Below are positions 28,319-54,528 of a stretch of DNA of 64,000 bases, in pieces. This stretch comes from Clostridia bacterium. GTDB taxonomy: Bacteria; Bacteroidota; Bacteroidia; Bacteroidales; 4484-276. Under the pieces are notes generated by a model that saw nothing but the letters and a program-made list of their open reading frames with translations, was not told the origin of the DNA and did not search any database. The translations under genes and the position numbers were made by a program. Numbering within the stretch: the stretch's first letter is position 1; the number at the start of each line of letters is the position of its first letter. The stretch covers positions 1,930-65,929 of the forward strand of contig SABY01000006.1 in NCBI GenBank assembly GCA_009928785.1, read 5' to 3'.

Positions 28319-29992
28319 ATGTACAAATACTCCCCGCTGACCTTTGGCAGCATTTTGCCCGAGGTGGTCAGCAAATACAGCCAGATGCCCGCTCTGGGCT
28401 ATGTCGGCGAAACTCCTCTTACTTATCACGATCTGGGTCAGCATCTGAATGCCCTGATGGCTTTTCTGGAAGAAATCCACATCGTGCCCGGCAACAAAGT
28501 AGCTATCCTAAGCCAAAATATGCCCAATTGGGGCATCACTTTTTTTGCGCTTCAGCGCATGGGAATTGTCGCCGTGCCACTCCTCCCCGATTTTAGCACC
28601 CACGAAATTTCTAATATTATCCGCCACGCTGACCTGGAGGCCATTTTTGTATCGGAAAGTTTACAGTACAAGATTGATGCATTAGAAAATCCATTCGTCG
28701 GAAAAGTGATTCTTCTGGACGACTTTGATTTGATTAATAATGATAATAAAACGGTTTTTGATATTAATAAAAAACCAATCGAAAACTACTTTCCCACTGA
28801 AGATGAGCTGAGTATTCTGCTTTACACTTCCGGTACCACCGGTGAGCCAAAAGGCGTTATGCTTTCGCAGAAAAATGTGATCACCAACGCCATCCAGTCC
28901 AACGCCGTGCAGCCGATATTGCCAGGCGACAAATTTCTGAGCGTGCTGCCACTGTCGCACACCTACGAAAATACCATTGGCCTGGTGCTGCCAATTATGA
29001 AAGGCGCCAATGTGAGTTATCTGCGCAAGCCACCCACCGCCAGCGTATTGGTGCCGGCCATGCAAGCCGTACGCCCCGACATCATGCTTACGGTTCCTAT
29101 GATCATCGAAAAAGTTTATAAAACGAGCATCTTTCCGGAGATTCAAAAAAAGGCTACTACGCGGCTGCTCACCAGGTTTGCCCCTACCCGACGGCTGATA
29201 CATCGCCTGGCAGGGCGCAAACTGATGAAAAAATTTGGCGGAAGGCTTAAATTTTTTGGTATCGGTGGCGCCAAGCTCGATGCCACCGTCGAACAGTTTT
29301 TGCGAGAAGCACATTTTCCTTATGCCATAGGTTACGGTCTTACCGAAACGGCTCCGCTTCTGGCAGGGTCAAACCCACAAAACACGCGCCTGCAAGCCAT
29401 CGGCCCGGCAGTGGTTGATTGCGAATTGAAGATTGCTAACCCAAATCCCCGCACCGGCGAGGGCGAGATATGGGCCAAAGGCGCCAATGTCATGCTGGGA
29501 TATTATAAAAATCCTGAGCGGACAAGCGAAGTATTTTCAGAAAATGGCTGGTTCAAAACCGGCGACCTGGGCGTATTCGACAGCGACGGCTACCTTAGCC
29601 ACAAAGGACGCCTCAAAAATATGATCGTCGGCGCCAACGGTGAAAATATCTATCCTGAAGAGATTGAAACACTCATCAACAATTTCCGTCATGTGCTCGA
29701 GTCGTTGGTGGTAGAGCAAAAAGGTAAGCTGGTGGCTATGGTTCACTACAATCGCGAGGAGCTGGAGCTTAAGATGAAAGAGATGAAGGCCGACATTTCA
29801 CAAAAAGTGGATGAGAAAATCGAAGAGATCACAGCACGTGCCGACAAAGCCGTGGAAGAACTCACCCGCGAACTGCACCAATATATCAACAGCAGGGTCA
29901 ACAAAATTTCGCGCATCCACCTGATGGTAGAGCACCGCGATCCTTTCCAAAAAACCGCTACCCAGAAAATTAAACGATACCTCTACGGGTAG
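28319..29992 (+). CDS. AMP-dependent synthetase/ligase (long-chain fatty acid-CoA ligase-like)
   Basis: AMP-binding signature LLYTSGTTGEPKGVML, plus YGLTE and GWFKTGD motifs. Confidence 0.88.
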   Translation: MYKYSPLTFGSILPEVVSKYSQMPALGYVGETPLTYHDLGQHLNALMAFLEEIHIVPGNKVAILSQNMPNWGITFFALQRMGIVAVPLLPDFSTHEISNIIRHADLEAIFVSESLQYKIDALENPFVGKVILLDDFDLINNDNKTVFDINKKPIENYFPTEDELSILLYTSGTTGEPKGVMLSQKNVITNAIQSNAVQPILPGDKFLSVLPLSHTYENTIGLVLPIMKGANVSYLRKPPTASVLVPAMQAVRPDIMLTVPMIIEKVYKTSIFPEIQKKATTRLLTRFAPTRRLIHRLAGRKLMKKFGGRLKFFGIGGAKLDATVEQFLREAHFPYAIGYGLTETAPLLAGSNPQNTRLQAIGPAVVDCELKIANPNPRTGEGEIWAKGANVMLGYYKNPERTSEVFSENGWFKTGDLGVFDSDGYLSHKGRLKNMIVGANGENIYPEEIETLINNFRHVLESLVVEQKGKLVAMVHYNREELELKMKEMKADISQKVDEKIEEITARADKAVEELTRELHQYINSRVNKISRIHLMVEHRDPFQKTATQKIKRYLYG

Positions 29993-30057
29993 GTTTTGTG
30001 TAGCTCATCGGTAGCATTTCAATAACCCTACCTTTCATGGCCAGACCCCCCTCTAAC

Positions 30058-30258
30058 TCCTCCGTCAGCCGACGGAGAGGACGCCAGCACCCAAGCCATC
30101 AGGGAGGGCGGGGTCGGAAAGCACTGACTGAAACCGGTGGGCTTTAGCCCGCACTACTTTTACATCAGTCTCTTTCAACGAACTCATCATAACATGCTTT
30201 TTTTTTGGGCTAAGGCCCACTGAAATACTTTTGCCTTTTAATCCCCGGACATCCGGGG
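30058..30258. repeat. Cluster of REP-like short palindromes
   Basis: CTCCGTC-AGCC-GACGGAG (30060-30077), GGGC-TTTA-GCCC (30139-30150), TGGGCTAAGGCCCACTGAA (30206-30224, the inverse of the 4131 unit) and CCCCGGACATCCGGGG (30244-30258). Confidence 0.6.
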
Positions 30259-30339
30259 TTAGTGATCAGACTGTCACAATATTTTATATCCGAGCCATCC
30301 TACCACATTACCACCTCAACCAGTCTTTTACAGCCATTA

Positions 30340-30670
30340 AATTTGGAAATCTTTTTTCACCCATAGCCGATTTTCACCCAGTGTTTTCACCCAAATGGGT
30401 GAAAACACCCTGTCTGCAATATTCATCCAGCGCATCGATATTTTTATACAGAAAAATATTATCTCCTGCTATCTTGTTGGTTGGTAATATTTTAAATCAC
30501 ATTTCTTTATCAACAATAAGTAACCAAATGGATCGTGGCATTACAATTGACAAGCACCCTTCATTCTGACTGATTAAAACTATTCTGCTTCGCTTCAGTC
30601 ATTTTTTTAAAGGGTATTAGAGTATTATTGTACTGTTTTAATTATTAACATTTAAATCTAATTGTTTATG
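30340..30670 (+). repeat. Copy A of a ~330-nt duplicated upstream leader/promoter segment
   Basis: Aligns along its whole length with 37194-37521. Both copies end at TTGTTTATG, the start codon of unrelated genes. Confidence 0.9.
30371..30408. promoter_or_regulatory. Candidate operator: half-site TTTTCACCCA plus a perfect 13-2-13 palindrome
   Basis: Half-site at 30371-30380. Perfect inverted repeat GTGTTTTCACCCA-AA-TGGGTGAAAACAC at 30381-30408. Confidence 0.6.
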
Positions 30671-33600
30671 AAAAGAGAAATTACGAATCCCAGAACAAAA
30701 GCATCCGAGACCTACCGCAGTGGGTTAGCGATGCTGATCATCATTTTTACATTGTTTTTGTCTCCCTGGCAAAATGTGAAAGCACAATCGTGCTGTCCGG
30801 AGTTTGAGCTAAAGGATGCCGTGGAAATATGTCCGCCTGAGGGCGCCTGCCGCGATTCGCTAGATCCGGCACAAGGAGCTATCGGACTTGCTGCTTGTAA
30901 AGAAAGCGCACATGTTTACACAGTTTACCCAAACGATGGATCTTTTACCTACACCTGGACAGTAGTTGGCGGCACCATTGCAACCAATTCCGGCAATCCC
31001 AAAACGATCCTTTGGGGCACCTCTTCCACCGGAACCATAAAGGTGGTAATTAATACCGGCTTCTGTATCGACTCCATCACACGTCAGGTTTGTTTGATGG
31101 CTGGACCCAAAGCTGCTATCACTGCCGACAGGGACACGGTTTGCACCGACGATCTGGTGTATTTTACCAATCTTTCGTTAGGTGGCAGCACTCACCACTG
31201 GGACTTTGGCGATGGCAATACATCCACCTCGCCTGTAAATCCTATTGGACATGCTTATGCCAGCCCGGGAACTTACACTGTTACGCTCACAACTACCGAC
31301 ATGGGCGCAGGCCAATGGGTATTTGGAAGCGACTTACAATTTGAGTTGCTGGTTCCTTGCGGCTGCTCCGATACCGCCACCCTAACGGTGGTGGTACTTC
31401 CCGGCAAAGGCCCCGAAATTGAGACCGACTGCTGCTTTGGCACCGTTTGCCCGGACGAAACATCCGACTTTTGCGCAGTGGATAGTTGCAGTGTTTACAA
31501 TTGGAGCGTAACGGGAGGAACCATCACTGCCGGCGCCGGCACCAAGTGCATCACTGTACAATGGGATGCCACTTACAGCGTTCCTACCACCGTGAGCCTG
31601 ACCACACCTGGCTGCAGCCTGGCTCCATGTGCCGGCACCACCACGATTAATGTACCTGTGCTTTATCCTAACTTTCCCATCACCGGACCTACGGTACTTT
31701 GCCAATATGCATCGGGTTCGTTTTCGCTCCCAGTACTGCCCGGCACCTATTATAACTGGACTGTAACGGGTGGAAGCTACCAGTTCAATTTGCAGGATCG
31801 GAATACCGCTATAGTGAATATTACGTTTAATGATGCCGCCACCTATCAGGTGAAATGTGTTTACGACAATCCACTCGCAGGCTGCAGCGGCAGCAGCGTA
31901 TTTACGGTAACAGTTTTGCCTGAATTTAAGATTACTTCAGGCGAAGAAACCGTTTGCGAAAGCGATACCTGGACATACTCTGCCAATGGCTCGGCAAATT
32001 GGACGGTAAGTCCCGCCGCCGGTGCCACCATAGCTCCTGCCGGCAGCTTAGCCAATATTACCTGGAACACTCCCGGAACCTATACCATAACGGCAACGCC
32101 CACCAATCCCGCAGCATTTTGCAACAGCGCCGCCTACAAAGTCGTGGATGTGATAGCCAAACCTATCCTCAACAGCATTGTCGGCAACGACAGCATTTGC
32201 CCCGGCGAGAATTACACTTTTAGCATTTCCTCCAACATTTCCGGCAGCCCCTTTGGGTGGACGGTGACGATGGGAACCATCAATATCCTGTCTACTATGG
32301 GTGCCGACAACGATTCGGTGGTGGCCAGCTTCAGTGGCACCGGCCCCTGGCAACTGAGCGTTGATCAGGCGATAGAAATCACACCCGGAAACTTTTGTAC
32401 ATCGCTTTCGAAAGTGATCAATATCTATCCATTCCTGCCACCTGTTATCACCGGGCCGGCTACCGCTTGCGTGGATGATGTGGTAAATTATTCGGCAGGA
32501 GGCTCCAACGCCACGGGTGAGTTTGAGTGGACTATTACGCCTTCGAGCCAGGGAAGCATCATTGCCGGACCAGGCACATCCAATGTTACTATAAAATGGC
32601 ACGGCCCATCGGCATCAGCCGTTCTGAAAGTGGAATCCTGCACCGGCAGCGCCACAAAAACGATAATCATAACGGCGCCTCCCACGGCCATTGCTACCTA
32701 TAGCGTACTACCGGTATTTTGTCTGGACCCCACCAGCACCCAGTCGCTCACACTCTCTACGCCAAACATACCCGGCTATATGTATCAATGGTACAAAAAT
32801 GGCGTAATCATGCCACCAGAAATAGCCGCGACCCTCAACATCAACATCGGCACTTTTAGTTTGCCTGGCACCTATACTTATTATGTAGAAGTATCCATAA
32901 ATGGCTGTACTATTAAAAGCAACATCATTAATGTGGTGATAAAGGATTGTCAGAATGGTGGCTCGGGATACGGAAACTGCGATGTTTCGGCTTATTTCGA
33001 TGCGTACGTTACTTGCACGGGGGTAATCCTTACCAATTTGTCGCAGGCAATTCCGCCGGCTACCTTCACCAGTGCGTGGTCGGCAACAGGGCCAGGACCA
33101 GTTTCATTTTCTCCGGGGCCACCGATAACCATGACAGTTTCGCAATCGGGCATTTACACCATAAAACTTACCGTAACGTCATCGTCAGGATGTGTGGCTA
33201 CCTGGACTCAAAATGTCTCTATTCTTTTGCCCAATGCCGACTTTAGCTTTTCGGCGCCTGCCTGCGACAACGAAGAGGTGAACTTTACAGCAAATCCTTT
33301 GAATCCTGCGTACAATTATTTTTGGGAATTTGGCGACGGATTTACTTCCTATCAGGGCACTACCAGTCATATTTACGGATTGCCGGCTCCAGCTACCTAT
33401 AATGTAAAAGTCACCATCACCGATCCGTACGGATGTATTGCAACCAAAATAAAACCCGTCACCATTAATCCGTCGCCGGTGTGCACTATATCAGTAGCCG
33501 ATACGATGATTTGTCCCGGCAGCGGCGAAACACTTTCTGCCTCCTGCACAGGCATGACATCCTACCAATGGTATAAAAACGGAAATCCTATACCGGGACC

Positions 33601-36600
33601 GGGTGCCAATGCATATCAATACACAGCTACCAGCCAGGGCTATTATTTTGTAAAAATGCAAAACAGTAATGGCTGCTTTGGCAAAAGCAACAAAATTTAC
33701 ATGTACATGCACCCATTGCCTAAAGCAAAAATAGATGGCACCAAACGCACGTGTGCACTCCCCGGCGATGTGGTTGGATTCTCGTTGTGGACGATTAACA
33801 ATTCCAGCTATAGCTACCAATGGAGCTGCAGTTCGCCGGCTACCTTTTCGCCACAAGGATTCTCGTCCACTTATGCAACCATGACTGCTCCTGCAGCAGC
33901 GTTAATGCCTGCTAATTACGAATTTGTTGTAGAAGTTACCGACAACAACACCGGCTGCATTAACTACGATACCCTATGCGTTTCAATTTACGAAGCTCCC
34001 ACGCTTTCGGTGCCCACGCTGAACCTCTGTGAAGGAATACCGGTGACACTATCGCCCACTCCACTGGATACTACCAGGTACAGCTACCAATGGAACAATG
34101 GAGCTACCACGCCGGTGATAACGGTGCAAACGGCAGGTTTTTACAGCCTCACCATTACCGACAAAGCCAATGGCTGCCAGGCTTCCGCCAATGCCGGGCT
34201 GATATTTCCAAAGCCTGACCTGAGTTTGTTCCCGACCGGTTGCGCCTCAATATGCGATCCCGACACGCTGCATCTCTATCTGCCGCTGCCGCTCAATGCA
34301 CAATGGCCTAACAACACCTATCCGATGGCTTATCCATCCATCATCTGGTACGCCGACGGTACTTATATCGGCTCCGGCGAAAACCTGGCATATCCGGCCA
34401 CAGGTTCAGGTTATCACGAAATTTGGGCTGTGGTACAAAACAGCTTTGGATGCATGGATACTACGGCAGTATTTTGCCTAAAAGACGACGTGTGTTGCAA
34501 CATGATTTTCGATTGGCTAAAAACCACGGATGCCTCCTGCCCGCAACTGGCTGATGGCTCCTTTAGTTTCCTGCTCAACATAGCTTCTACAGTAGCTCCG
34601 TTTACGCTTACGCAGATGGCACCTCCGCCGGTGCAGTCGTGGAGTGTTACGCCGGGCGTACCCTTTACCACACCGGGACTTTTGCCGGGATTTTACGTCT
34701 TTCAGCTTTCGGATGCCACAGGCGGATGTACCAAGACTTTTGATATCTTGATCGGAGAGATGCAGGAATCCTGTTGTTTTGCTGCCATCGATTCATCGTT
34801 TATCCATATCACCGCCGATATCACTTACACTGCCGATAAAGTTTGGGATAATAAATATTACATCGATGATGGAGTGATGGTAACCGTGGACGGCGTGGTA
34901 TTGGATGTAACCAATGTGGATGTAGTGTTTGGCGAATGTGCCGGCATACAGTTTATCAACGGAGGCTATCTGCGCAGCAACAACTCGGTGTATCGTCCTT
35001 GCGACATCGACAAGACCTGGAGGGGTTTGCGCTTTTGGAGCCCCGGCAAGTTCGACAACATCATCAACGAATGTACCTTCAAAAATGCCGAAGTAGCGCT
35101 CTATTTCACCAGAAGCTCGGATGGAGTGGTTTCCAACAACCTTTTCTCCAACTGTAACTATGGCGTTCGCGTGGAGAACAACAAAAATTTCAATCATCCC
35201 ATCAGTGGCAACAGATTCGTGACGGAGCAGTTTTTCCCCGACTGGGCCTGCACTACCAAATACTCATTTGTTAATAACTTCAGTACTTATGGGATTTACA
35301 CACTTAACTCTAAATTGCTGGAACAGACCGCACACAATGAGTTTATCAACAGCAAAGGCACGGAGTGGCCACGCACTTATGGTGTGTATCAGATAGGTAG
35401 CGGTGGAGCTTTTTCCGAAAACACCTTTACAGATATTTCCATGGCGTTTTACGTACAGGGACAGAGTTATTACACCAGCATCGAAAACAATGAGATTGAA
35501 GTAAACCTGCAAGTGATGGGCAGCTTTGCCTCGATCTATGCGGTAAGTAATCAGGGACCGGTGATTGAAATTATTAATAACGAACTCCGCAACAACTTTC
35601 ATCAGTACCTGAGCTTCTCGGCTATCTATGCTAACCGGACTAACAATCTGAATATTTACGGCAACACCATCGATGGCTTCTCGTATGGGATCATCAGTCA
35701 GAGTGCTCCCAACTACCAGATCAGCAACAACGAAGTAGAAAATGCTGCTGTTGTGGGGATTTATGTGGCGGAACAGAAAGATAGCAAAGGCTTTATCACA
35801 TGCAACAAAATCAGGATGCGCAATTTGACGTCGAGCATTGGTATTGCTGGTTACACCATGACCAACCGCAGCCAGATCACCAGCAACTGCATCACCGATT
35901 GCAATGTTTCGATTAGTCTGAATGGTTTAATGACAGGTTCCAGTGCCCCCCTGCTTCCGCTGGTGCGCAACAACTTCCTGTATAATTACTATAGCATCGG
36001 AATCAACGTGCAGAATCACTCAGGAAACATTGGCACCTTTGCCAATCCGGGACTTAACACGCTGTGGAGTAATAGAAATACGGCTATCGACATCAACAGC
36101 AACCTGAACATAACCGTAGCCGACAATTTCGGGATGTTCAACATTGCTTTCCCGATGGTACAAATCACCAGCAATCGCCCGTATCATTCTACTGCCTCGT
36201 GTGGTCATCAGATTTTCAATATGCCTTCGCAAGGCAATCTCAATGTGAATTATGTTTGTGAAAATCTGGATGCAACACTTGCTCCTTTGACTCCTGCTGG
36301 CAACGGATTCGTTTTGATGCAGAATTATCAAAGCATCCTTTCCGATGGTTGGAATGATTTTGAAGAGGCTGCCTTGATCCTGGCTTCGGTATCCAATCCT
36401 GACCAGCAATTGCTGGATGAGTTGATAGCAAACACCCCGTTGAGCGATAACCAAAAGCAACTGCTCAGGTATCAATATTATTTGCAAATAGCCAATAGAG
36501 AAGCTGCTGCTGCAAGTCTTAGTAATTTTATTCCGACCGATGAAACCGAAGCCAACTTCAAATTCGTGGCACAAACCCAACTCAGCATCATCGACGACTG

Positions 36601-37036
36601 GAGTGAGGTAACGCCTGAGGTCATAAGCACGCTCGAAGGTATTGTGCAAACCAAAACCACAGTATCCAATGCGGCCATAACCCTGCTTAACAATTTGGCC
36701 GGATATCGTGATCAGTGGGTTGAAGAGCCTGAACTAAAAGCGGTAGAAGCTGCCGGCGAAACCCGTCGCATCGACGACGCCAATAGCTTCCTGCGTATCT
36801 TCCCCAATCCTGTGAAGCATACGGCTTTTGTGGAACTTGTGAACGATACCGAAGCCGAAAGCCAACTGCAACTGTTCGACATCAGCGGACGACTGGTCGA
36901 AAACTACGCGGTAGAAATCGTGGCGGGAGGCATCGAGATAGACATGAGCCGCCTCGACGACGGGATTTACTTTGTAACCCTCACCCGAATGGATAGTGGT
37001 GTGGTGCAGAAAGGTAAAATCCTTAAGATGAAATAA
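30668..37036 (+). CDS. Giant T9SS-sorted surface protein: Cys-bounded Ig/PKD-like modules, two canonical PKD domains, a right-handed beta-helix region and a T9SS C-terminal domain
   Basis: Signal peptide ending NVKAQ. About 6 repeated modules of the form C...Y.W.V.GG.I....I.V.W....C. PKD signatures WDFGDGN and WEFGDGF. YQWYKNG-type Ig modules. Parallel beta-helix repeats (NNLFSNCNYGVRVENN, ISNNEVENAAVVGIYV, VRNNFLYNYYSIGINV). Tail FLRIFPNPVKHTAFVEL...GIYFVTLTRMDSGVVQKGKILK. ATG at 30668 is preferred over TTG at 30662. Confidence 0.85.
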   Translation: MKREITNPRTKASETYRSGLAMLIIIFTLFLSPWQNVKAQSCCPEFELKDAVEICPPEGACRDSLDPAQGAIGLAACKESAHVYTVYPNDGSFTYTWTVVGGTIATNSGNPKTILWGTSSTGTIKVVINTGFCIDSITRQVCLMAGPKAAITADRDTVCTDDLVYFTNLSLGGSTHHWDFGDGNTSTSPVNPIGHAYASPGTYTVTLTTTDMGAGQWVFGSDLQFELLVPCGCSDTATLTVVVLPGKGPEIETDCCFGTVCPDETSDFCAVDSCSVYNWSVTGGTITAGAGTKCITVQWDATYSVPTTVSLTTPGCSLAPCAGTTTINVPVLYPNFPITGPTVLCQYASGSFSLPVLPGTYYNWTVTGGSYQFNLQDRNTAIVNITFNDAATYQVKCVYDNPLAGCSGSSVFTVTVLPEFKITSGEETVCESDTWTYSANGSANWTVSPAAGATIAPAGSLANITWNTPGTYTITATPTNPAAFCNSAAYKVVDVIAKPILNSIVGNDSICPGENYTFSISSNISGSPFGWTVTMGTINILSTMGADNDSVVASFSGTGPWQLSVDQAIEITPGNFCTSLSKVINIYPFLPPVITGPATACVDDVVNYSAGGSNATGEFEWTITPSSQGSIIAGPGTSNVTIKWHGPSASAVLKVESCTGSATKTIIITAPPTAIATYSVLPVFCLDPTSTQSLTLSTPNIPGYMYQWYKNGVIMPPEIAATLNINIGTFSLPGTYTYYVEVSINGCTIKSNIINVVIKDCQNGGSGYGNCDVSAYFDAYVTCTGVILTNLSQAIPPATFTSAWSATGPGPVSFSPGPPITMTVSQSGIYTIKLTVTSSSGCVATWTQNVSILLPNADFSFSAPACDNEEVNFTANPLNPAYNYFWEFGDGFTSYQGTTSHIYGLPAPATYNVKVTITDPYGCIATKIKPVTINPSPVCTISVADTMICPGSGETLSASCTGMTSYQWYKNGNPIPGPGANAYQYTATSQGYYFVKMQNSNGCFGKSNKIYMYMHPLPKAKIDGTKRTCALPGDVVGFSLWTINNSSYSYQWSCSSPATFSPQGFSSTYATMTAPAAALMPANYEFVVEVTDNNTGCINYDTLCVSIYEAPTLSVPTLNLCEGIPVTLSPTPLDTTRYSYQWNNGATTPVITVQTAGFYSLTITDKANGCQASANAGLIFPKPDLSLFPTGCASICDPDTLHLYLPLPLNAQWPNNTYPMAYPSIIWYADGTYIGSGENLAYPATGSGYHEIWAVVQNSFGCMDTTAVFCLKDDVCCNMIFDWLKTTDASCPQLADGSFSFLLNIASTVAPFTLTQMAPPPVQSWSVTPGVPFTTPGLLPGFYVFQLSDATGGCTKTFDILIGEMQESCCFAAIDSSFIHITADITYTADKVWDNKYYIDDGVMVTVDGVVLDVTNVDVVFGECAGIQFINGGYLRSNNSVYRPCDIDKTWRGLRFWSPGKFDNIINECTFKNAEVALYFTRSSDGVVSNNLFSNCNYGVRVENNKNFNHPISGNRFVTEQFFPDWACTTKYSFVNNFSTYGIYTLNSKLLEQTAHNEFINSKGTEWPRTYGVYQIGSGGAFSENTFTDISMAFYVQGQSYYTSIENNEIEVNLQVMGSFASIYAVSNQGPVIEIINNELRNNFHQYLSFSAIYANRTNNLNIYGNTIDGFSYGIISQSAPNYQISNNEVENAAVVGIYVAEQKDSKGFITCNKIRMRNLTSSIGIAGYTMTNRSQITSNCITDCNVSISLNGLMTGSSAPLLPLVRNNFLYNYYSIGINVQNHSGNIGTFANPGLNTLWSNRNTAIDINSNLNITVADNFGMFNIAFPMVQITSNRPYHSTASCGHQIFNMPSQGNLNVNYVCENLDATLAPLTPAGNGFVLMQNYQSILSDGWNDFEEAALILASVSNPDQQLLDELIANTPLSDNQKQLLRYQYYLQIANREAAAASLSNFIPTDETEANFKFVAQTQLSIIDDWSEVTPEVISTLEGIVQTKTTVSNAAITLLNNLAGYRDQWVEEPELKAVEAAGETRRIDDANSFLRIFPNPVKHTAFVELVNDTEAESQLQLFDISGRLVENYAVEIVAGGIEIDMSRLDDGIYFVTLTRMDSGVVQKGKILKMK

Positions 37037-37060
37037 ACCCTTTTCATGAACAAATCCCTG

Positions 37061-37096
37061 AACCGGTGGAGCACTTGCTTCGCCGGTTTTTTTTTG
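37061..37096 (+). terminator. Rho-independent terminator after the giant T9SS gene
   Basis: AACCGGTG (37061-37068) pairs with CGCCGGTT (37081-37088) with one mismatch, followed by T9. Confidence 0.7.
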
Positions 37097-37193
37097 TTGT
37101 AAGTCACACTGTGAATAACCCAGGGCCATTTTGAAAAAAACCTGAACATCTGTTTCATGCTTTCGCAGCATTCACGGTGTGACTGGATTTTAG

Positions 37194-37521
37194 AATTTGG
37201 AAATCTTTTCCATCCCTAGCCGATTTTCACCCAGTGTTTTCACCCATATGGGTGAAAACACCCTGTCTGCAATAATTATCCATCGCATCATTTTTGTGAC
37301 ACAGAAAAATATTATCTCCTGCTATCTTGTTGGATGGTAATATTTTAAATCACATTTCTCGATCAGTTAAGTAACCAAATAGATCGTGGCATTACAATTG
37401 AAAAGCACCCTTCATTCTGACTGATTTAGACTATTCTGCTTCGGCTCAGTCATTTTTTTAAAAGGTGTTTAGGCATTGTTGTACTGTTTTAATTATTAGC
37501 ATTTAAATCTATTTGTTTATG
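37194..37521 (+). repeat. Copy B of the ~330-nt duplicated upstream leader/promoter segment
   Basis: Aligns with 30340-30670 and ends at the ATG of the 513-aa ORF. Confidence 0.9.
37224..37261. promoter_or_regulatory. Candidate operator, copy B
   Basis: Half-site TTTTCACCCA at 37224-37233. Perfect palindrome GTGTTTTCACCCA-TA-TGGGTGAAAACAC at 37234-37261. Confidence 0.6.
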
Positions 37522-39054
37522 AAAATCCCATTTTTTATCGGCCTTTGCCTGAGCCTGCTTCTGGTATTACCAATGTGCGTAAAGTCACAAGTAGTGGTGC
37601 AACTTTATCAGCCTCCACCCAATCAATGGCAAATTGAGGATATTTGGAACTTAACACTTTTCAACACCACCAATCAAACTTTATCTGTGTATTTGCATGG
37701 TACGGTTGAAGAAGATGGGGAGGGGCTTATTTTTGAAGGAACAAGTGCAATTTTCGAATTACCGCCAAATTTTTCAGGACGAGTTAATCCTAGGGATTTA
37801 GAACCCGCAGATGCTGGATATGCCAATGGTGATTATGAAGAATATGTATTACGAACTGGCACAATGCCTGAGGGCACCTACACCTTTTGTGTGGCTGTAT
37901 TCAATTCAATTACTGATTTACAATTAGGGATAGACTGTTACACGCAATTCATTATCCCTTTCACCCCTCCTGAATTAATAAGCCCAGAGTATGAGTCTAT
38001 CGTAATCGAGCCGTTTCCTTTTTTTCTTTGGCTACCTCCTATGCCCTTAAATCCGGCAAATTCTTTCGTGTACCAGCTCAAAGTTGTGGAGCAACTCGAC
38101 GATCAGTTACCGTTTGAAGCCATGGAGGCCAATCCGGCATTCTTTATTCAACAAAACATCCAAAATACTTCGTTTCAACTTCCTGTTTCTGCAAGGCCCT
38201 TTGAGATTGGTAATAAATATGCGTGGCAAGTTACTGCATTCATTGGCATGTACGGTAAAGATGAAATAGGTAAAAGCGAAGTGTGGAGTTTTGAAAAAAT
38301 TGAGGTCATAGAGCCTCCTGATGCAGAATTGCCCGATTGCGATTTGTATTCAATCGAATTCAAGAAAACCATCACAGGCGACAGTTGCTATTATAAACTT
38401 AGCCTTATCAATAACGACTCCCTTGCCAGTGAGGATTTATTGCCTCAATCATTTACCCTGTCCATTAAAAACGACTCCATCAAGGCCTTTGATAAAAAGG
38501 CAGCCATAACCTGGGAACAAGCTCCGTCAAAGATAAACGATCCGCTTGCAAAAATGGATTGGAAATACAAACCAGGGCACATTCCAATTGGTAAAACTTA
38601 CATTGGTAAAGTCTTTTTGCAGGGAGAACCTGAAAATATTTTTCGGATCATCTATTCATGGAATGATAAGAAGGGAAAAACCATCTGTAAGGACTCAATC
38701 GCATTTAATGAACCCATTAGTTACTATGATTTAAGCAATCAACCTACGCAAGGTTATATCGGGATTTATGATGAAAAGCTGAACATCCGCTTCATCAATA
38801 ATTACGCACCATCAAAAGTAATCTACATTGGGATTTTTGACGCGCTCACCATGGAGTTGGCCGGAAGCCTCACAAGTGAAGATTTATTGGAAAACAACCC
38901 ATACTTTTTTGTAGGCCATGGGCTAAATCAACTTTCAATAAATCTTGAAGGTTTTTCTTTGCAGGAAGATACGCCCTACCTGCTAACACTTTATGACATT
39001 AAAAACTATCATTACCTAAAATTTAAAGCCCTTTTCAATCATGAAGAAAATTAA
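37519..39054 (+). CDS. Secreted hypothetical protein, first gene of the RHS operon
   Basis: Signal peptide MKIPFFIGLCLSLLLVLPMCVKSQ. No motif recognised. Its stop overlaps the next ATG by 14 nt. Confidence 0.7.
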   Translation: MKIPFFIGLCLSLLLVLPMCVKSQVVVQLYQPPPNQWQIEDIWNLTLFNTTNQTLSVYLHGTVEEDGEGLIFEGTSAIFELPPNFSGRVNPRDLEPADAGYANGDYEEYVLRTGTMPEGTYTFCVAVFNSITDLQLGIDCYTQFIIPFTPPELISPEYESIVIEPFPFFLWLPPMPLNPANSFVYQLKVVEQLDDQLPFEAMEANPAFFIQQNIQNTSFQLPVSARPFEIGNKYAWQVTAFIGMYGKDEIGKSEVWSFEKIEVIEPPDAELPDCDLYSIEFKKTITGDSCYYKLSLINNDSLASEDLLPQSFTLSIKNDSIKAFDKKAAITWEQAPSKINDPLAKMDWKYKPGHIPIGKTYIGKVFLQGEPENIFRIIYSWNDKKGKTICKDSIAFNEPISYYDLSNQPTQGYIGIYDEKLNIRFINNYAPSKVIYIGIFDALTMELAGSLTSEDLLENNPYFFVGHGLNQLSINLEGFSLQEDTPYLLTLYDIKNYHYLKFKALFNHEEN

Positions 39055-42000
39055 TCTGTTCATTGTAGCATTATTAATTGTTACCACCAGTTTGTCAGCA
39101 CAAACCGGCGGCCCCGGACAACCCGAATTCATGCAGTTCGAGCAGGCGGGCACTTCTGATATGGTGAGCCCTTCCACAGGTTCCTTTTCATACCAGATAC
39201 CGCTATTTACCATTGGCGGGTATCCGATGAACCTTACCTACCAGGCAGGCATACGGATGGAAGACGTGTCCACCATGGTGGGGCTTGGATGGAACCTGAA
39301 TGCCGGTACCATTGTCCGCTCTCTAAGGGGACTACCCGACGATTTTAGTGGTGATATTATAACAAAGGAATTTTCGGTCAAAGACAATAAAACATATGGT
39401 GGTAAAATTGATGTTGATCTTGAAATTGCAGGGATTGATTCTAAAAAATTAGCCGCTAGCGCCAGCGTTGGCGTAAGTGCGGGTCTTGGCTTATTTTACA
39501 ACAACTATAAGGGTTGGGGCGCCGAGGTTTCGATGGATGTTTCTTTATCTGCTAACAAAGGTGGTGGAAGTGCCTCCTTAGGTCTTGGTATTGCCGCAAA
39601 TTCACAATCAGGTGTGAATAAATACATTAGCCCCAACATAGGGTTTGCTATCGGGTCAGACAGCGATAAGATTGGTATTTCGCTGGGAAAAACCTGGTCT
39701 GTAAATTCCAGCGAAGGTTTAAGCTCCAGTTTAAACACAGGATTAAGTTATACCAGGTATTCAGATAAGAAAACTTCAAAAACAATGAGAAATGGCGAGA
39801 AAAAGGATGCCCCTGGTTCTGGATCAGCGAGTTTAATGGGATTTTCCAAGCAATCCTATCTGAACAACTCTTTTCAGCCCGACATTGACTATCCCTTTAT
39901 CAATACAGCAGGAACATATTCGGGGTCAATAGGCTTTGATGCTTATATGGTAGATCCGGGTATAAGATTTACAGGGTACTATTCCAAGCAGACACTGGCA
40001 ACAAAAATTCAAAAGTTCCCGGCTTATGGTATTATGCATGAAACAGAAGGTATGCCTGCAAATGCACTGATGGATTTCAACAGGGAAAAAAAGTTGCCCT
40101 ATTATGTAGGAGAATCCAAAATATTGCCTGTCCCCTACAAAACACCCGATGTATTTAACCTGAATGCCCAGGGGATTTCATTAACTTTTTCGGTGGGTAA
40201 GAACGATATAGGTATTGTGGGCGATCCAACTGCTGAGCTGAGCTCAGTTGGAAATAAAATCGGGGCTGAAGTGCATCTGGGCGGTGTATTTAAGGCTGGC
40301 GCCAATATAGGAGTAAATTCTACAACTCAGAAAAGCGGAAGGTGGATTCCTTCGGAACTGTCTGGTAAGTTGACTTTCAAACCAGATCAGGATGCTTATT
40401 CATTAAATTTGTATCAGCAGCATTATTTTAAGAATCATGGAGAAACCAACAGGTTTGACCATTCACTTTTTAAATATCTTAACAGTTATAAGCAATTTTC
40501 ATTTAGCCCAAAAGATGAACTAAGCCTGAACGGTGTTTTCGCCCACGGTAATAGTATTAAAACCGAATACATCAATAAGTTTCAACCCGTACGTCAAACC
40601 GCCATCAATTACCTGACTGCAGGCGAAGCAGATAAAATCGGATTTGATAAAAAAATCCTTTACTACAAATTCTCCAACAATTCTCAATCTGAGCTTGCCG
40701 AAAATAGGACCAGTTCAGTCCGCAAGGCCCATCATTTGTCAGAAATTTCAGTAAGCCAGCCCGATGGTATGAGATATGTTTTCGGAATACCCGTTTACAA
40801 TACCACAGAGAAAGAGGTAACTTTTAATGTATCTAAAAATACTGTCGATCCCATAAAAAACCTGGTGAAGTATGACAAATCAGATAATAGTACCGGTAAC
40901 ACAAAAGGGACAGACAATTATTTTGAATCAATGACTACCCCTGCTTATGTTACCCAATTCCTTATTACGGCAGTGCTCAGTCCTGATTACAGAGATCTGA
41001 CAGCTGATGGCATCAGCGATGATGATGTGGGGAACTATGTAAAATTCTCTTACTTTAAAGAAGATTTTTTATACAGGTGGCGTACTCCTTTCGAGCAAGA
41101 CCAGGCTACATATAGCAGGGGTTTAAGAAGTGATGATATGGATGATAAAGGAACTTATGTTTATGGTGAGAAAGAACTCTGGTACATCCGCTCAATAGAA
41201 TCCAAAACAGAAATTGCCAGGTTTTTTTATTGTGAACGTAAGGATGGTTTTGGTGTATTAGACGAAAACGGTGGAATTGATCAAAAAATGTTTTTACGTC
41301 AGTTGGATTCGATTGTTGTTTATTCGATGCATGATTACACAACAAACTATCTTAATGCTACACCCATAAAAACCATACATTTCACATTCGACCAAACCCT
41401 TTGTAAAGGCATTAACAATACAAGCACGGCTGGCGGTGGCAAGTTAAGCCTGAAAGAGGTTGCCATTACCTATGAAAACTCACAAAAAGGCCTGCTTACA
41501 CCTTATGCTTTTGATTATGGCAAAATGCCCGATGGCAATGTTATAAACCCGGATTATAGCACCAGGGATGTAAACCGTTGGGGCTATTACCAGGAAAATC
41601 CAACCAATGCCCTTAGTGATTGTGATGACAGCAAACCCCTCTCGAATATTGATTTTCCCTATGCTTCGCAGGATCGTGACATGATGAACAAAAATGCTTA
41701 TGCCTGGAACCTGACCCATGTTACCATCCCGGGTGGAGGAAAGATTATTGTGGAATACGAAGCCCTTGATTATGCTTACCTACAGGACAAGCAGGCAGGG
41801 CAGATGTTTTTAGTGAAGGGGTTAGGTAACTTGGGTCAATCCGACCTTAACTCCAACAACCTGAAAATATTTTTTGATATACCAACGACCATTAAGAGTA
41901 AAGATCAACTATTCAGGCACTGTCTTCTCGACATTACATCGGGACAGCCAAATTTATACTATAAATTCTATGTGAATCTCAATGGCAATGAGTACGACTA

Positions 42001-45000
42001 TATAACCGGATATGCCGGCGTTGTGGATTGGGGGGTTGATAAGAAAAATAATATCAATTACGGCTGGATAAAATTGGCGAATGTAGCACTGGACGATGAC
42101 ATGCCAAAGCTAAAGATTAAAACCAATACAATCCACAAAACTGCCATACAGTTTTTGCGGATTAACAGGAATAGCCTGGTTTTTTCAAGCGGACAGCCAA
42201 ATCCTTCAGGTAGTTTTGAAGGGTTTATCAACGGGCTTCCTGATGCATTCATTGCGCTTTCCGGTCAGTTAGAGGCATCGGCTTCCGGAGGGTTAAATAA
42301 TTATTGTATGATCAAAGGTTTCTGCAGCAAAATAGACATTAATAAAAGCTTCATCCGCCTTTTCAATCCCACAAAGGATAAAATTGCCGGAGGAAGCCGT
42401 GTGGCAAAGATCAGTATCAACGACCGTTTTGGCGAGATGACCGGTGGAGTGCATCAGAGTAAAGCATACACCACCTCGTATTACTATACAACAGAAGAAA
42501 TTAGTTCTTTTACCGGCGATACCATTACCATTAGTTCAGGTGTTGCCGATTATGAACCCATGATTGGCGGGGATGAGATTTCCCTGAAAAGGCCCATTTT
42601 TTATTCTGACAAAAAAAAGAAGGCCCCGGACAACGAATTCTATGTGGAAGAACCTGTGAATGAGTCTAATTTTCCATCGCCCCAAATCATTTACAGCAAA
42701 GTAGCGCAAGTTACCAATGAAGATGGACAGCATGTAGGCAAAACCGGAAAAGTTGTAAATGAGTTCTTTACAGCAAAGGATTACCCGGTAAAGGTTGACC
42801 GGACTATCGTGTATGAGCAACGCGATAAATCAAGTGGGATGGCTTTTACTATACCGTTTTCATCTAATAACCAGCAACATGATTTTGCAACAGTTGCCCA
42901 GGGCTATTCCATAGAACTGAATAGTGTGAGCGGTAACCAAAAGGCTACCTGGGTTTATAATGAAAATGGCGACAGAATTTCGGGCGAAACTTTTGAGTAC
43001 GCTGATGAAAATGACAATTTCACCACCATCGACAGGTATGGGGAGATACATAAAAACACCACGCTCGGCTTAACGGTAGAATATACTATCGACTGCAAAA
43101 AAAGTACTGATGAAATGAAGAACCAAACTTTTTCTGCCAATATAAATACCATCCTGGTTATTGGTCCAATCCCTATTCCGATACCACTTTACACACAAAT
43201 GTCAGAAAAAAAACAATTTCAATCCATCGTATGCAATAAGATCATCCATCGCAATGCCCTGGTGAAGCGCCACACCGTGTATAGTCAAACGGCTGCTGTT
43301 TCAACCGAAAATCTTGCCTACGACGAAGTAACAGGTGAGGTACTGCTAACAGTTACTACCAACGAATTCAACGATTCACTGTATTCTTTCACCTATCCTG
43401 CCTGGTGGATGTACCCTGGCATGGGACCGGCTTATGAAAATACAAGGATGTACATTAACAGAGGGAATTATAATACATTCAAACAATTTCTTAAGCCCGG
43501 CGATGAGTTAAGAACACCAAGCAATGGCAACAGGATATGGGTATCTTACAATACGGGTAATTTTTTAACTACTAAAAATCATCTGTTAGCTAAGCTACCC
43601 AATGCTACCTACCTGGTGTATTCTTCAGGCCACAAAAACCTTCTGAATGATAAGGCAGGGCAAGTCGTTACATGGAATTACAATCCCTTGAGCAAGGGTA
43701 AATATATTGATTTTAGTCAAAGTGCTATTTTAAACAGCAATGTGATTGAGTATGATAACGTGGCTGTAAATTATTGCTCGTATTGCCCAACAGAAGGAGA
43801 TCCAGACCAACCTGACGAACCTCCTCTTCCGGATGAAGATGATCCGATAATAGATACGACCTATCAAACACCAATTCAACCGGATGGTATATTTTACCAA
43901 AACGTAAACCCTGATACTTCACCTGAGCCAACTATAAGTCCCGACCTAATAGTAATTGATACCAGTATCCCCATCCAAAGTGGGACACAGGGATGGAATA
44001 ATAGTTCCAGTACGCCGGCACTTCCTGATCCCCCTCAAAACCCTATAGGATTGTCGGGCTCAGTAAATCCTTTTTTAACGGGCAGCAAAGGTACATGGAA
44101 GGCCAAAACTTCACGGTTTTTCCTGACAGAGCGAACACATGGAAATTTGAATACCGGAACCGGTGATATCAGGACCCAGGGTTTATTTAAAACATACAAC
44201 GATTTTTGGGTGGTGCCGAAAAGCCCAACTATGTGGGGCAAGGATTATAATAACTGGGAATGGAATGAAACGATAAACATGGTGGATGTGGATGGACAAA
44301 TCATCGAAACGGAAGATCGTATCGGGCGAAAAACAAGCAGCCTGTTGGGGTATAAAAATACAGTGATACTGGCACAGGCATCCAATGCCGGATACCACGA
44401 AATCTTTTATGATGGTTTTGAAGACTACCAAAATTCACCTTGCCCATCGGTTTGGTTTAGCGATCTTTCTAAAAGAGTTATTTCTACCGGGAATGGCATT
44501 ATTGATGCTACTGAGTCGCACACAGGAAAATATGCACTTCAGGTGTCCAATTCAGTTGTATTAAGGCCAAAAGCGCCTGTTGCAACTAACGACACGGCAT
44601 GTATCGGTGGCTGGTATCCCTACCATACTCAATCGGACATAACTTACCTGTTCTCTTGCTGGGTAAAAGTGGACAAACCCAAACCTGTTTTAAACTGCAG
44701 CGATGCTTCGGTAGTAATATCAAGTGCCGGACAAACGCTTACACTTCTTGCTGATGGCCCTGTGATTGAGGGCTGGCAAAGGGTCATGGGTACATTTGTG
44801 GTTGCCAGTCGAAACCTAAATATTACAATTTCGCTGGAAAAAGGAACTGCCAACACTTACTTTGATGATGTACGCATTATTCCTTTCGACGCAAACATGA
44901 CTGCATATGTGTATGATGATATGAACCTGCGGCTTACTTACATTTTGGACGAAAACAACTATTTCACCAGATATGAATACAACAACCAGGGTGAACTTAT

Positions 45001-45079
45001 CCGCATAAAAAAGGAAACGGAAGAGGGGATATTGACCATACAGGAAGCTTATCAGGCATTAGTTAAAAAAAGGAATTAA
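39041..45079 (+). CDS. Large secreted protein with SpvB/TcaC-N-terminal-like motif, C-terminal jelly-roll (CBM4/9-like) and terminal YD-type repeats
   Basis: Signal peptide MKKINLFIVALLIVTTSLSAQ. VSPSTGSFSYQIPLFTIGGYPMNLTYQAG...VGLGWNLNAGTIVRSLRGLPDDF resembles the SpvB-domain consensus (tG..s..iPl...P.L.L.Y....G.GW.L....I.R...GlP). C-terminal GWQRVMGTF...YFDDVRIIP is followed by YEYNNQGELIRIKKE. Confidence 0.7.
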   Translation: MKKINLFIVALLIVTTSLSAQTGGPGQPEFMQFEQAGTSDMVSPSTGSFSYQIPLFTIGGYPMNLTYQAGIRMEDVSTMVGLGWNLNAGTIVRSLRGLPDDFSGDIITKEFSVKDNKTYGGKIDVDLEIAGIDSKKLAASASVGVSAGLGLFYNNYKGWGAEVSMDVSLSANKGGGSASLGLGIAANSQSGVNKYISPNIGFAIGSDSDKIGISLGKTWSVNSSEGLSSSLNTGLSYTRYSDKKTSKTMRNGEKKDAPGSGSASLMGFSKQSYLNNSFQPDIDYPFINTAGTYSGSIGFDAYMVDPGIRFTGYYSKQTLATKIQKFPAYGIMHETEGMPANALMDFNREKKLPYYVGESKILPVPYKTPDVFNLNAQGISLTFSVGKNDIGIVGDPTAELSSVGNKIGAEVHLGGVFKAGANIGVNSTTQKSGRWIPSELSGKLTFKPDQDAYSLNLYQQHYFKNHGETNRFDHSLFKYLNSYKQFSFSPKDELSLNGVFAHGNSIKTEYINKFQPVRQTAINYLTAGEADKIGFDKKILYYKFSNNSQSELAENRTSSVRKAHHLSEISVSQPDGMRYVFGIPVYNTTEKEVTFNVSKNTVDPIKNLVKYDKSDNSTGNTKGTDNYFESMTTPAYVTQFLITAVLSPDYRDLTADGISDDDVGNYVKFSYFKEDFLYRWRTPFEQDQATYSRGLRSDDMDDKGTYVYGEKELWYIRSIESKTEIARFFYCERKDGFGVLDENGGIDQKMFLRQLDSIVVYSMHDYTTNYLNATPIKTIHFTFDQTLCKGINNTSTAGGGKLSLKEVAITYENSQKGLLTPYAFDYGKMPDGNVINPDYSTRDVNRWGYYQENPTNALSDCDDSKPLSNIDFPYASQDRDMMNKNAYAWNLTHVTIPGGGKIIVEYEALDYAYLQDKQAGQMFLVKGLGNLGQSDLNSNNLKIFFDIPTTIKSKDQLFRHCLLDITSGQPNLYYKFYVNLNGNEYDYITGYAGVVDWGVDKKNNINYGWIKLANVALDDDMPKLKIKTNTIHKTAIQFLRINRNSLVFSSGQPNPSGSFEGFINGLPDAFIALSGQLEASASGGLNNYCMIKGFCSKIDINKSFIRLFNPTKDKIAGGSRVAKISINDRFGEMTGGVHQSKAYTTSYYYTTEEISSFTGDTITISSGVADYEPMIGGDEISLKRPIFYSDKKKKAPDNEFYVEEPVNESNFPSPQIIYSKVAQVTNEDGQHVGKTGKVVNEFFTAKDYPVKVDRTIVYEQRDKSSGMAFTIPFSSNNQQHDFATVAQGYSIELNSVSGNQKATWVYNENGDRISGETFEYADENDNFTTIDRYGEIHKNTTLGLTVEYTIDCKKSTDEMKNQTFSANINTILVIGPIPIPIPLYTQMSEKKQFQSIVCNKIIHRNALVKRHTVYSQTAAVSTENLAYDEVTGEVLLTVTTNEFNDSLYSFTYPAWWMYPGMGPAYENTRMYINRGNYNTFKQFLKPGDELRTPSNGNRIWVSYNTGNFLTTKNHLLAKLPNATYLVYSSGHKNLLNDKAGQVVTWNYNPLSKGKYIDFSQSAILNSNVIEYDNVAVNYCSYCPTEGDPDQPDEPPLPDEDDPIIDTTYQTPIQPDGIFYQNVNPDTSPEPTISPDLIVIDTSIPIQSGTQGWNNSSSTPALPDPPQNPIGLSGSVNPFLTGSKGTWKAKTSRFFLTERTHGNLNTGTGDIRTQGLFKTYNDFWVVPKSPTMWGKDYNNWEWNETINMVDVDGQIIETEDRIGRKTSSLLGYKNTVILAQASNAGYHEIFYDGFEDYQNSPCPSVWFSDLSKRVISTGNGIIDATESHTGKYALQVSNSVVLRPKAPVATNDTACIGGWYPYHTQSDITYLFSCWVKVDKPKPVLNCSDASVVISSAGQTLTLLADGPVIEGWQRVMGTFVVASRNLNITISLEKGTANTYFDDVRIIPFDANMTAYVYDDMNLRLTYILDENNYFTRYEYNNQGELIRIKKETEEGILTIQEAYQALVKKRN

Positions 45080-45081
45080 TC

Positions 45082-54024: not shown

Positions 54025-54123
54025 ATGAAAAATTTAAAAGCATTTCTGTTTCTTATCTTGTTGCTAATCATATCAGCAACATCGCAAGGCCAGGACAGCC
54101 CATCGCCTGTTCAGTTCCATGGT
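54025..54123 (+). pseudogene. 5' remnant of a paralog of the 55480 outer-membrane gene
   Basis: ATGAAAAATTTAAAAGCATTTCTG...GGCCAGGACAGCCCATCGCCTGTTCAGTTCCATGG parallels 55480-55578 (MKNL..GQDSP.PVQFHG). Similarity stops where REP-like sequence begins (~54124), and the frame closes at 54181-54183. Confidence 0.7.
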
Positions 54124-54406
54124 CCCGGCTGGCGCGGATTTTTAATCCGTGCCGGATATTTCCCTACCAGGTGGCATTTGTAATGCCGCTTAAAACAAAG
54201 CCTAAATTGTATATGGCAAAGGAAACTGCAAAGGCCAAAAGAGCATACACACTTTAGGTTTCGGCATCCTCTTGCCGGTGTTTTCGGTATCGCCGGCTGC
54301 ACAGGAGCTAAAGTTTCATGGCACCCCCGCCCGCCGGGCAAATTGCCAACATGCAGGGTTGTAGGCAGGAGTTGGTGGCAGAGTTTTTCAGGAACTGCCA
54401 GGCGGG

Positions 54407-54476
54407 GTTCGCAGAACCCAAACCTGACAGTGTTCGCAGAACCCAAACCTGACAGTGTTCGCAGAACCTGTCAGCG
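54407..54476. repeat. 25-bp tandem repeat, 2 exact copies plus a partial one
   Basis: GTTCGCAGAACCCAAACCTGACAGT at 54407-54431 and 54432-54456. Partial copy GTTCGCAGAACCTGTCAGCG at 54457-54476. Confidence 0.9.
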
Positions 54477-54528
54477 TTTACCAGGATGAATTTTTTACCG
54501 GATATTTATCAGATGAACAGACACAGTC

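Follow-up and report, generated by a model that had tools for sequence, protein, structure and literature searches.

The Locus and Its Duplicated Non-coding Segment

The window analysed here is a stretch of 64,000 nucleotides (64 kb) deposited under the name Clostridia bacterium (assembly GCA_009928785.1, contig SABY01000006.1, positions 1,930 to 65,929), and all positions given below are those of the window. It contains a non-coding segment of about 330 nt that is present in two copies, one in front of the gene for a giant adhesin that is a cargo protein of the type IX secretion system (T9SS), and one in front of an operon that includes an RHS protein. Copy A spans 30340-30670 (331 nt) and copy B spans 37194-37521 (328 nt), and these are the only full-length copies in the window. 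In a global alignment, 299 of 333 columns (89.8%) were identical, the differences comprising 27 substitutions and 7 gap columns, and a BLASTN comparison of the two copies returned an E value of 1.8e-122. A repeat search of the window also recovered the pair, in this case as two blocks with 87% and 91% identity. A first-pass annotation, made by eye, had described two segments that align end to end with scattered differences and whose similarity runs abruptly from its first letters to the start codons of two genes; the alignment agrees on both points, with AATTTGGAAATC as the first letters and ATGAAAA, the starts of the two genes, as the last. The same annotation had called the coding sequences unrelated past Met-Lys, and the encoded proteins indeed have no likeness beyond those two residues. 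The lengths that it gave for the two products, 2124 and 513 amino acids (aa), hold if translation is counted from upstream TTG codons, while counting from ATG yields 2122 and 511 aa. The two transcription units are kept apart by a strong intrinsic terminator located 3' of the adhesin gene (Table 1).

Modular Organization and Conservation of the Segment

The segment is a string of modules, comprising a box array, a spacer, a promoter-type element, and a leader, and is not one long RNA leader. The array is built from TTTTCACCC boxes, among them a perfect palindrome, GTGTTTTCACCCA-nn-TGGGTGAAAACAC, the dyad of which can also be written as TTTTCACCC-N4-GGGTGAAAA, and extra half-sites lie 13, 17, or ~31 bp from the palindrome. 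The array of copy B is the same as that of copy A except that its first box is degenerate. A total of nine TTTTCACCC boxes occur in the window compared to 1.0 expected, and all nine fall within copy A, copy B, or a third site, termed site C, that is described below. Roughly 140 bp past the boxes lies TGGCATTnCAATTGA, an element of the sigma-54 type with -24 and -12 boxes. The position of this element predicts transcription starts near 30562 and 37413, ~222 nt from the 5' end of the segment, which would confine the leader RNA to the final ~106 nt.

Orthologous adhesin loci were recovered by scanning a genome collection for the palindrome (L007 and L028), and one further locus (L056) was added from a scan of metagenomes. 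Locus L007, from a Lentimicrobiaceae metagenome-assembled genome (MAG), is 80% identical across the adhesin gene and also matches in the upstream AMP-ligase neighbor, and locus L028, from a Bacteroidales MAG, is 86% identical. The adhesin orthologs at all three loci have the same leader, and copy A is found at the orthologous position in three species. When copy A, copy B, L007, and L028/L056 are aligned, conservation is confined to four blocks, namely the box array, the sequence GTGGCATTnCAATTGA, the arms of a leader hairpin together with a run of seven T residues (T7), and the ~50 nt that directly precede the ATG. The -24/-12 element (TGGCATTnCAATTGA / GTGGCATTnCAATTGA) is invariant in this alignment. 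The ~130-bp spacer between array and element is 86% identical between copies A and B, whereas copy A shares only 61% of it with L007 and 41% with L056; the spacer is essentially unconstrained between species. In L028/L056, it is exactly 10 nt longer. The stem arms of the leader hairpin are conserved and its loop is variable. The hairpin is thermodynamically weak, with predicted energies of -7.5 kcal/mol (copy A) and -9.7 kcal/mol, and of -2.2 kcal/mol in L007, where an A-C mismatch breaks it. A strong attenuator at the hairpin and U-run was considered and was not adopted, given the weakness of the hairpin across this range (-2.2 to -9.7 kcal/mol) and the lack of covariation.

The -24/-12 Promoter Element

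Promoters recognized by sigma-54 have the -24/-12 consensus TGGCAC-N5-TTGC, of which the GG-N10-G register is the signature, and transcription from them starts 11-13 nt after the -12 box. The sequence TGGCAT-N5-TTGA in copies A and B has the exact register (GG, 10 nt, G) and departs from the consensus at the C of the -12 box. The pattern GGCAY-N5-TTGM was matched four times in the window, at copy A, copy B, site C, and positions 5762-5776 of the minus strand, and all four matches are intergenic, directed toward a gene, and located 40-131 nt before a start codon. The context of the -24 GG is TGGCAT in A, B, L007, and L028, AGGCAC at site C, and GGCAC or GGCAT at 11 more independent sites. The GG-to-G spacing is exactly 10 nt at all 14 independent sites that pair the element with a palindrome (see below), as well as at two further promoters in the window, those of a Clp ATPase gene and of a gene encoding a TPR protein.

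These two promoters lack TTTTCACCC boxes and are presumably served by other activators. The Clp promoter provides an internal control. Its element, within TTGGAACGTTATTTGAT, is invariant in four species whose Clp proteins are 83-100% identical, and the intergenic surroundings are poorly conserved; one of the loci in this comparison (L100) shares its MAG with L007 and L017. In Flavobacterium psychrophilum, sigma-54 promoters have been mapped before ClpB, GroES, DnaK, Lon, exported proteins of unknown function, and the T9SS adhesin operon remFG-sprCDBF, with the last also confirmed by mutagenesis (PMC9723704). Several of these promoters have TTGT in place of TTGC at -12, as in TTGGCACGGTAGTTGTA (PMC9723704 supplement). 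At L092, a locus with a 42%-identical ortholog of the 511-aa protein, the corresponding sequence is GGAATACCACTTGC, which has the canonical TTGC. The invariance of the Clp element in four species, the TTGT of F. psychrophilum, and the TTGC at L092 all bear on whether TTGA can serve as a -12 box. It is very likely, though not certain, that the element is a promoter of the sigma-54 class, carrying a -12 variant typical of the lineage.

A primary-sigma promoter of Bacteroidota (-33 TTTG / -7 TAnnTTTG) was also examined as the shared promoter and was rejected, since the TAnnTTTG box is present only in copy A (at 30338) and L028 and is absent in copy B, site C, and L007. A generic sigma-70 scan yielded only low-scoring matches; such a scan does not apply to Bacteroidota.

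Pairing of Palindrome and Promoter Across Sites

Palindrome sites from the window, the genome scan, the metagenome scan, and L091, a locus identified through protein homology and not through the DNA pattern, were pooled into 30 independent clusters. A strict element (GG[CA]AY-N5-TTGN) was found on one side of the palindrome, 127-152 nt from its center, in 14 of these 30 clusters, and only one other strict match was found within 20-420 nt on either side of the palindromes. At the background rate of the strict element, 1.2e-4 per nt and strand, ~0.2 matches would be expected in the 127-152-nt band. Further, the distances between palindrome and element are grouped at 127, 139-143, and 149-152 nt, which are about one helical turn apart, while the distance from palindrome to start codon ranges from 179 to 896 nt. 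The spacing rule is obeyed despite unrelated intervening sequence at site C, L009a, L009b, L017/L069, L041, L049, L051, L064, L070, L073, and L091. At site C, where the sequence between the elements is unrelated to that in copies A and B, the -24/-12 element is positioned 49 nt before a gene for a 702-aa secreted protein (55480-57588) with a signal peptide. At L091, which encodes a 58%-identical ortholog of the 511-aa protein, a separate palindrome is followed 139 nt downstream by GGCACAAGGGTTGA (GGCAC-N5-TTGA), and the leader is otherwise unrelated.

In A, B, and L007, the third half-site of the array lies beyond the palindrome as seen from the promoter; in L017, L069, and L073, it lies toward the promoter. 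Since the array is found in both orientations, it would be able to work either way round, as an enhancer does. The comparative evidence is thus in keeping with both helix-face dependence and orientation independence, and consists of the distance groups, the additional 10 nt in L028/L056, and the flipped arrays. Por_Secre_tail, HYR, GEVED, fn3, or subtilase domains are found in the products of genes behind the other paired sites, most of which are large T9SS cargo proteins. The recurrence of the same palindrome-promoter logic at large T9SS surface-protein genes of this lineage therefore defines a regulon. The duplication is real and is not due to chance, and the cassette belongs to this lineage-specific regulon of T9SS surface proteins, which is regulation of a known kind. 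A full-text literature search for the box sequence returned only unrelated primer matches.

At several paired sites in metagenome loci (L009 at ~6080-6260 and ~6500-6580, L041, L049/L078, L064, and L070/L083), the -24/-12 element is followed after 40-60 nt by the Shine-Dalgarno sequence AAGGAGG. Strong Shine-Dalgarno sequences are rare in Bacteroidota. A tiny open reading frame (ORF) of 5-47 codons follows, and the large T9SS gene begins only 400-850 nt further on. The tiny peptides of L009 and L070 have the motif CFVTP in common. Such ORFs could encode leader peptides or small secreted peptides.

Table 1. Features of the two segment copies and of related sites in the window, with window positions. 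UTR, untranslated region; UAS, upstream activator sequence.
Feature	Positions	Strand	Description
Copy A enhancer (UAS), predicted	30354-30408	+	Direct TTTTCACCC at 30354-62, 30371-79, and 30384-92; inverted GGGTGAAAA at 30397-405
Copy A perfect palindrome GTGTTTTCACCCAAATGGGTGAAAACAC	30381-30408	+	Formed by the last direct box and the inverted box
Copy A spacer, enhancer to promoter	30409-30535	+	AT-rich; presumed looped out
Copy A sigma-54-type -24/-12 promoter TGGCATTACAATTGA	30536-30550	+	Predicted transcription start near 30562
Copy A predicted 5'UTR (~106 nt)	30562-30667	+	TGACTGA (30567-73) pairs with TCAGTCA (30595-601), then T7 (30602-08)
Copy A start-codon-proximal block	30619-30667	+	~49 nt, nearly invariant
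Gene behind copy A	30668-37036	+	T9SS cargo/adhesin; PKD domains, beta-helix, Por_Secre_tail T9SS sorting domain
Intrinsic terminator 3' of adhesin gene	37060-37099	+	13-bp stem, then T run
Upstream module at copy B only	37102-37184	+	Inverted pair AGTCACACTGTGAAT (37102-16) / ATTCACGGTGTGACT (37170-84)
Copy B enhancer, predicted	37207-37261	+	Degenerate box 37207-16; TTTTCACCC at 37224-32 and 37237-45; inverted GGGTGAAAA at 37250-58; palindrome 37234-37261
Copy B sigma-54-type -24/-12 promoter TGGCATTACAATTGA	37387-37401	+	Predicted transcription start near 37413
Copy B predicted 5'UTR	37413-37518	+	Hairpin 37418-24 / 37446-52; T7 37453-59; conserved proximal block 37470-37518
Operon behind copy B	37519-52902	+	511-aa secreted protein, then 2012-aa ORF, then 2606-aa ORF with RHS/YD repeats
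First gene of operon behind copy B	37519-39054	+	511 aa from ATG; 513 aa from TTG
Site C, third member in window	55271-55444	+	Palindrome GTTTTCACCCATGTGGGTG (55271-89), second box (55303-11), -24/-12 element AGGCACACCCTTTGA (55430-44)
Sigma-54-type element TGGAACGTTATTTGA	8582-8596	+	47 nt upstream of Clp ATPase gene (8643-11228); no TTTTCACCC boxes; internal control
Sigma-54-type element TGGCATGACTATTGA	5762-5776	-	~40 nt upstream of TPR protein gene (4583-5722, downstream of gyrA); no TTTTCACCC boxes

Proposed Mechanism and Alternative Explanations

Taken together, these observations make it likely that each copy is a complete enhancer-dependent regulatory region of the sigma-54 type, consisting of enhancer, promoter, and leader. 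In such a scheme, an activator of the bacterial enhancer-binding-protein kind would bind the TTTTCACCC-N4-GGGTGAAAA palindrome and the neighboring TTTTCACCC half-sites ~165 bp upstream of the predicted start, and looping of the ~130-bp AT-rich spacer would allow it to meet RNA polymerase-sigma-54 bound at TGGCAT-N5-TTGA. Transcription, presumably dependent on RpoN, would begin ~12 nt past the element, yielding the ~106-nt leader with its strongly constrained last ~50 nt, and both the adhesin and the RHS operon would be subject to identical transcriptional and leader-level control by the same regulator. The sequences directly show the modular layout, its recurrence, the phased spacing, the pattern of conservation, and the recent date of the copy; the choice of sigma-54, the activator, the start site, and looping of the DNA are inferred from them. 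Two of the options offered by the first-pass annotation, a shared promoter with a 5' leader and a portable promoter cassette, come close to this evidence; its framing of the whole 330 nt as a leader does not, the conserved modules being the box array and a promoter 140 bp further on. It had also named transcription starting downstream of the segment as an observation that would speak against its reading, and the predicted start lies inside the segment.

A more far-reaching proposal, which we regard as tentative and rather improbable in its entirety, is that relatives of the Lentimicrobiaceae possess a dedicated sigma-54 regulon with TTGA/TTGG promoters, in which a single activator would govern the T9SS giants, the RHS toxin-like operon, and the small peptides with Shine-Dalgarno sequences. 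Members of such a regulon would be recruited or homogenized by copying of regulatory regions, and the ~50-nt block and the hairpin/U-run would add a layer of control after initiation.

Several observations weigh against an enhancer-dependent sigma-54 region. The canonical GC of the -12 box is absent, with TTGA or TTGG at every site (TTG is always present). No strict promoter match accompanies the palindrome in 16 of the 30 clusters; several of these have near-matches, such as TGGTAC-N5-TTGA at 148-149 nt, and most of the remaining ones come from unrelated, GC-richer organisms, with one cluster of 23 loci that includes human-gut metagenome contigs. Neither rpoN nor genes for enhancer-binding proteins (GAFTGA motif; PF00158 with a helix-turn-helix domain) were found in the window or in ~100 fetched loci, as judged by scanning every large ORF of the window against Pfam and by searching six-frame translations of all loci for GAFTGA/ESELFG motifs. 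It should also be noted that the transcription start is a prediction from the promoter element. Finally, the strong constraint on the last ~50 nt and on the hairpin arms is not accounted for by a promoter alone; the hairpin arms and T7 (+5 to +47 of the predicted mRNA) and the ~50-nt proximal block may represent a second control layer acting on translation or mRNA stability.

Some of these same observations would suit a different arrangement, in which the palindrome serves a conventional transcription factor as its operator and GGCAY-N5-TTGA is read by a non-sigma-54 factor or by a second DNA-binding protein, making the segment a shared promoter without an enhancer. The canonical C never occurs at -12, no rpoN or activator gene was seen in the window or the fetched loci, and a perfect dyad would fit any dimeric regulator. 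This arrangement is nonetheless unlikely. The GG-N10-G register and its TGGCAC-like flanks are characteristic of sigma-54, and it is looping activators, not class I/II activators or repressors, that typically act over a fixed, helically phased separation of ~140 or ~150 bp. Moreover, TTGA is also conserved at the Clp gene, a member of the chaperone set that is under sigma-54 control in another Bacteroidota species.

The first-pass annotation had also proposed a cis-regulatory RNA. Here, transcription of the whole ~330 nt would begin at a promoter located at or before the 5' edge of the segment (TAAATTTG at 30338, which resembles the Bacteroidota -7 box), and regulation would reside in an RNA structure built on the 10-bp hairpin and competing pairings of the TTTTCACCC boxes. 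Compared with shuffled sequences, the whole leaders have more stable folds (z = -2.9 and -4.6); a hairpin of -14.1 kcal/mol is predicted for the palindrome, and three TTTTCACCC copies could vie for one GGGTGAAAA. Nevertheless, the proposal is not supported, and we consider it very unlikely. A scan of 29900-37700 against Rfam 15 at E<=1 returned no matches, none of 28 predicted pairs had compensatory changes (RNAalifold on the predicted 5'UTRs; the power with four homologs is low), and the middle 130 nt, 41-61% identical in orthologs, is not conserved. The TAnnTTTG box that such a transcript would start from is present in copy A but absent in copy B and L007. The position of the palindrome is fixed relative to the -24/-12 element but varies between 179 and 896 nt relative to the start codon, some sites have the array in the reverse orientation with respect to the gene, and site C retains only the 5-bp core of the hairpin.

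An origin of the segment as a mobile or selfish repeat, similar to a miniature inverted-repeat transposable element (MITE) or a repetitive extragenic palindromic (REP) sequence that by chance landed upstream of two genes, appears extremely unlikely, as the first-pass annotation had already argued in favoring neither chance nor a generic repeat. A perfect palindrome does lie inside the segment, and a gene similar to those for REP-associated tyrosine transposases is found nearby, together with REP-like repeats (54400-55262). The segment is, however, present in only two full copies in 64 kb, has no terminal inverted repeats or target duplications around it, and occupies the orthologous position in three species in the case of copy A. 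Both copies have the same orientation and end exactly at start codons, and the local REP sequences, of the CTGACAGG type, are unrelated to the boxes.

Probable Copying of the Adhesin Regulatory Region

Because the drifting spacer is 86% identical between copies A and B as compared with 41-61% to the orthologs, the copying is recent and took place long after the L056 and L007 lineages had branched off. The comparison suggests that the adhesin regulatory region was likely copied onto the RHS operon, by duplication or gene conversion. The RHS operon was probably already part of the regulon before this event, since its ortholog at L091 has a leader of its own with the same logic and the A-type leader is found at the adhesin in three species. 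The simplest reading of these sequences is that the former regulatory region of the RHS operon was replaced by a copy of that of the adhesin.

The upstream flank of copy B bears on where the copied region ends. About 90 nt of this flank (37099-37193) match a 100-nt unit, 2.9 tandem copies of which precede the adhesin enhancer of L007; the unit is absent at copy A. Since the flank is present at copy B and L007 and not at copy A, the point where the similarity abruptly begins is a breakpoint that arose later on the A side, not the boundary of an element. In L007, the tandem units span 1802-2089 and contain the inverted pair TCACCCCGTGAATAA / CATTCACGGGGTGAC. The 100-nt unit might represent further sites for a regulator.

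More distant orthologs of the 511-aa gene were also compared. At L092/L093, which encode a 503-aa ortholog with 42% identity, a canonical GGAAT-N5-TTGC is found 93 nt before the ATG and TTTTCACCC boxes are absent, and sigma-54-type control of the RHS operon may therefore be older than the activator that binds the palindrome. No boxes were seen at L094, L096, and L097 (orthologs with 41-43% identity), the locus of a further ortholog, L095, looks rearranged, and L090 includes none of the DNA upstream of its gene. The base composition of the RHS operon gave no sign of a foreign origin.

Comparison with Known Systems and Significance

Classical enhancer-dependent sigma-54 promoters with upstream activator sequences include glnAp2 with NtrC, nifH with NifA, and Pu with XylR. 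The UAS for an enhancer-binding protein is a dyad-symmetric site, often present in multiple copies, 80-200 bp upstream. At the sites described here, the center of the palindrome is 127-152 bp upstream of the GG and is accompanied by extra half-sites. Like the classical systems, these sites combine a -24/-12 element in exact register with multiple palindromic sites 100-200 bp upstream, orientation independence, helical phasing, and a non-conserved AT-rich spacer. Unlike them, they have TTGA or TTGG rather than TTGC at -12, and they serve genes for giant secreted surface proteins and an RHS operon rather than nitrogen, flagellar, or catabolic genes.

Dedicated transcriptional control tied to T9SS in Bacteroidota has a parallel in the PorX/PorY/SigP system of Porphyromonas gingivalis, which comprises an extracytoplasmic function (ECF) sigma factor and an atypical response regulator and which mainly controls the T9SS machinery. 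The sites in the window differ in having a -24/-12 architecture with a distant palindrome and in being located at cargo genes. With MITEs and REP elements, the segment shares the properties of being a short, non-coding, intergenic repeat that contains a palindrome, but it differs in its lack of terminal repeats, the two copies seen, their fixed orientation and position relative to start codons, and the orthologous placement of copy A.

The closest resemblance within the phylum is to the sigma-54 (SM4) promoters of F. psychrophilum, which likewise serve a T9SS adhesin operon, exported proteins, and chaperones and in which the -12 position is often not C (PMC9723704). That organism belongs to a different order, the relatives of the present sequence being Lentimicrobiaceae/Bacteroidales. 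Here, a defined palindromic enhancer is found at a fixed distance from the promoter (the present analysis did not search PMC9723704 for a counterpart), and an entire regulatory region has been duplicated between two unrelated operons.

The control of very large T9SS adhesins and of contact-dependent toxins in Bacteroidota is poorly known outside of a few model species. The cis-regulatory code of palindrome, phased spacer, and -24/-12 element offers a handle for predicting regulons in uncultured Lentimicrobiaceae-like bacteria of anaerobic digesters, and the palindrome could be used as bait for its activator in DNA-affinity methods or in DNA affinity purification sequencing (DAP-seq). In addition, sigma-54 promoters with TTGA at -12, which would score poorly with standard TTGC-based matrices, become amenable to annotation. 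The details that stand out are the TTGA/TTGG -12 box, the clean helical phasing across metagenomes, and the transfer of a regulatory region, for which this locus is a clean natural case of wholesale transfer between unrelated operons.

Source of the Contig and Other Repeats in the Window

The name Clostridia bacterium looks like a binning or taxonomy error. The encoded proteins carry T9SS sorting domains, and all close relatives are Lentimicrobiaceae/Bacteroidales MAGs (80-86% nucleotide identity), and the source is therefore assigned to the Bacteroidota.

The transposase-like gene near site C is an ORF on the minus strand (54584-55180) whose product resembles a REP-associated tyrosine transposase (NCBIfam NF047646, E=5e-15, which is below the curated cut-off). 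It is surrounded by REP-like repeats that are unrelated to the TTTTCACCC boxes, comprising tandem gttcgcagaacccaaacctgacagt units at ~54400-54470 and 'ggtcttgcag...ctgacaggtc' on both sides. A direct repeat with 86% identity, starting with ATGAAAAATTTAAAA, is found at 54025-54126 and 55480-55581. It corresponds to the first 102 nt of the 702-aa gene (its signal peptide and N-terminus), repeated ~1.45 kb upstream across the transposase-like gene, and the arrangement resembles a paralog that has been truncated or the leftover of a rearrangement.

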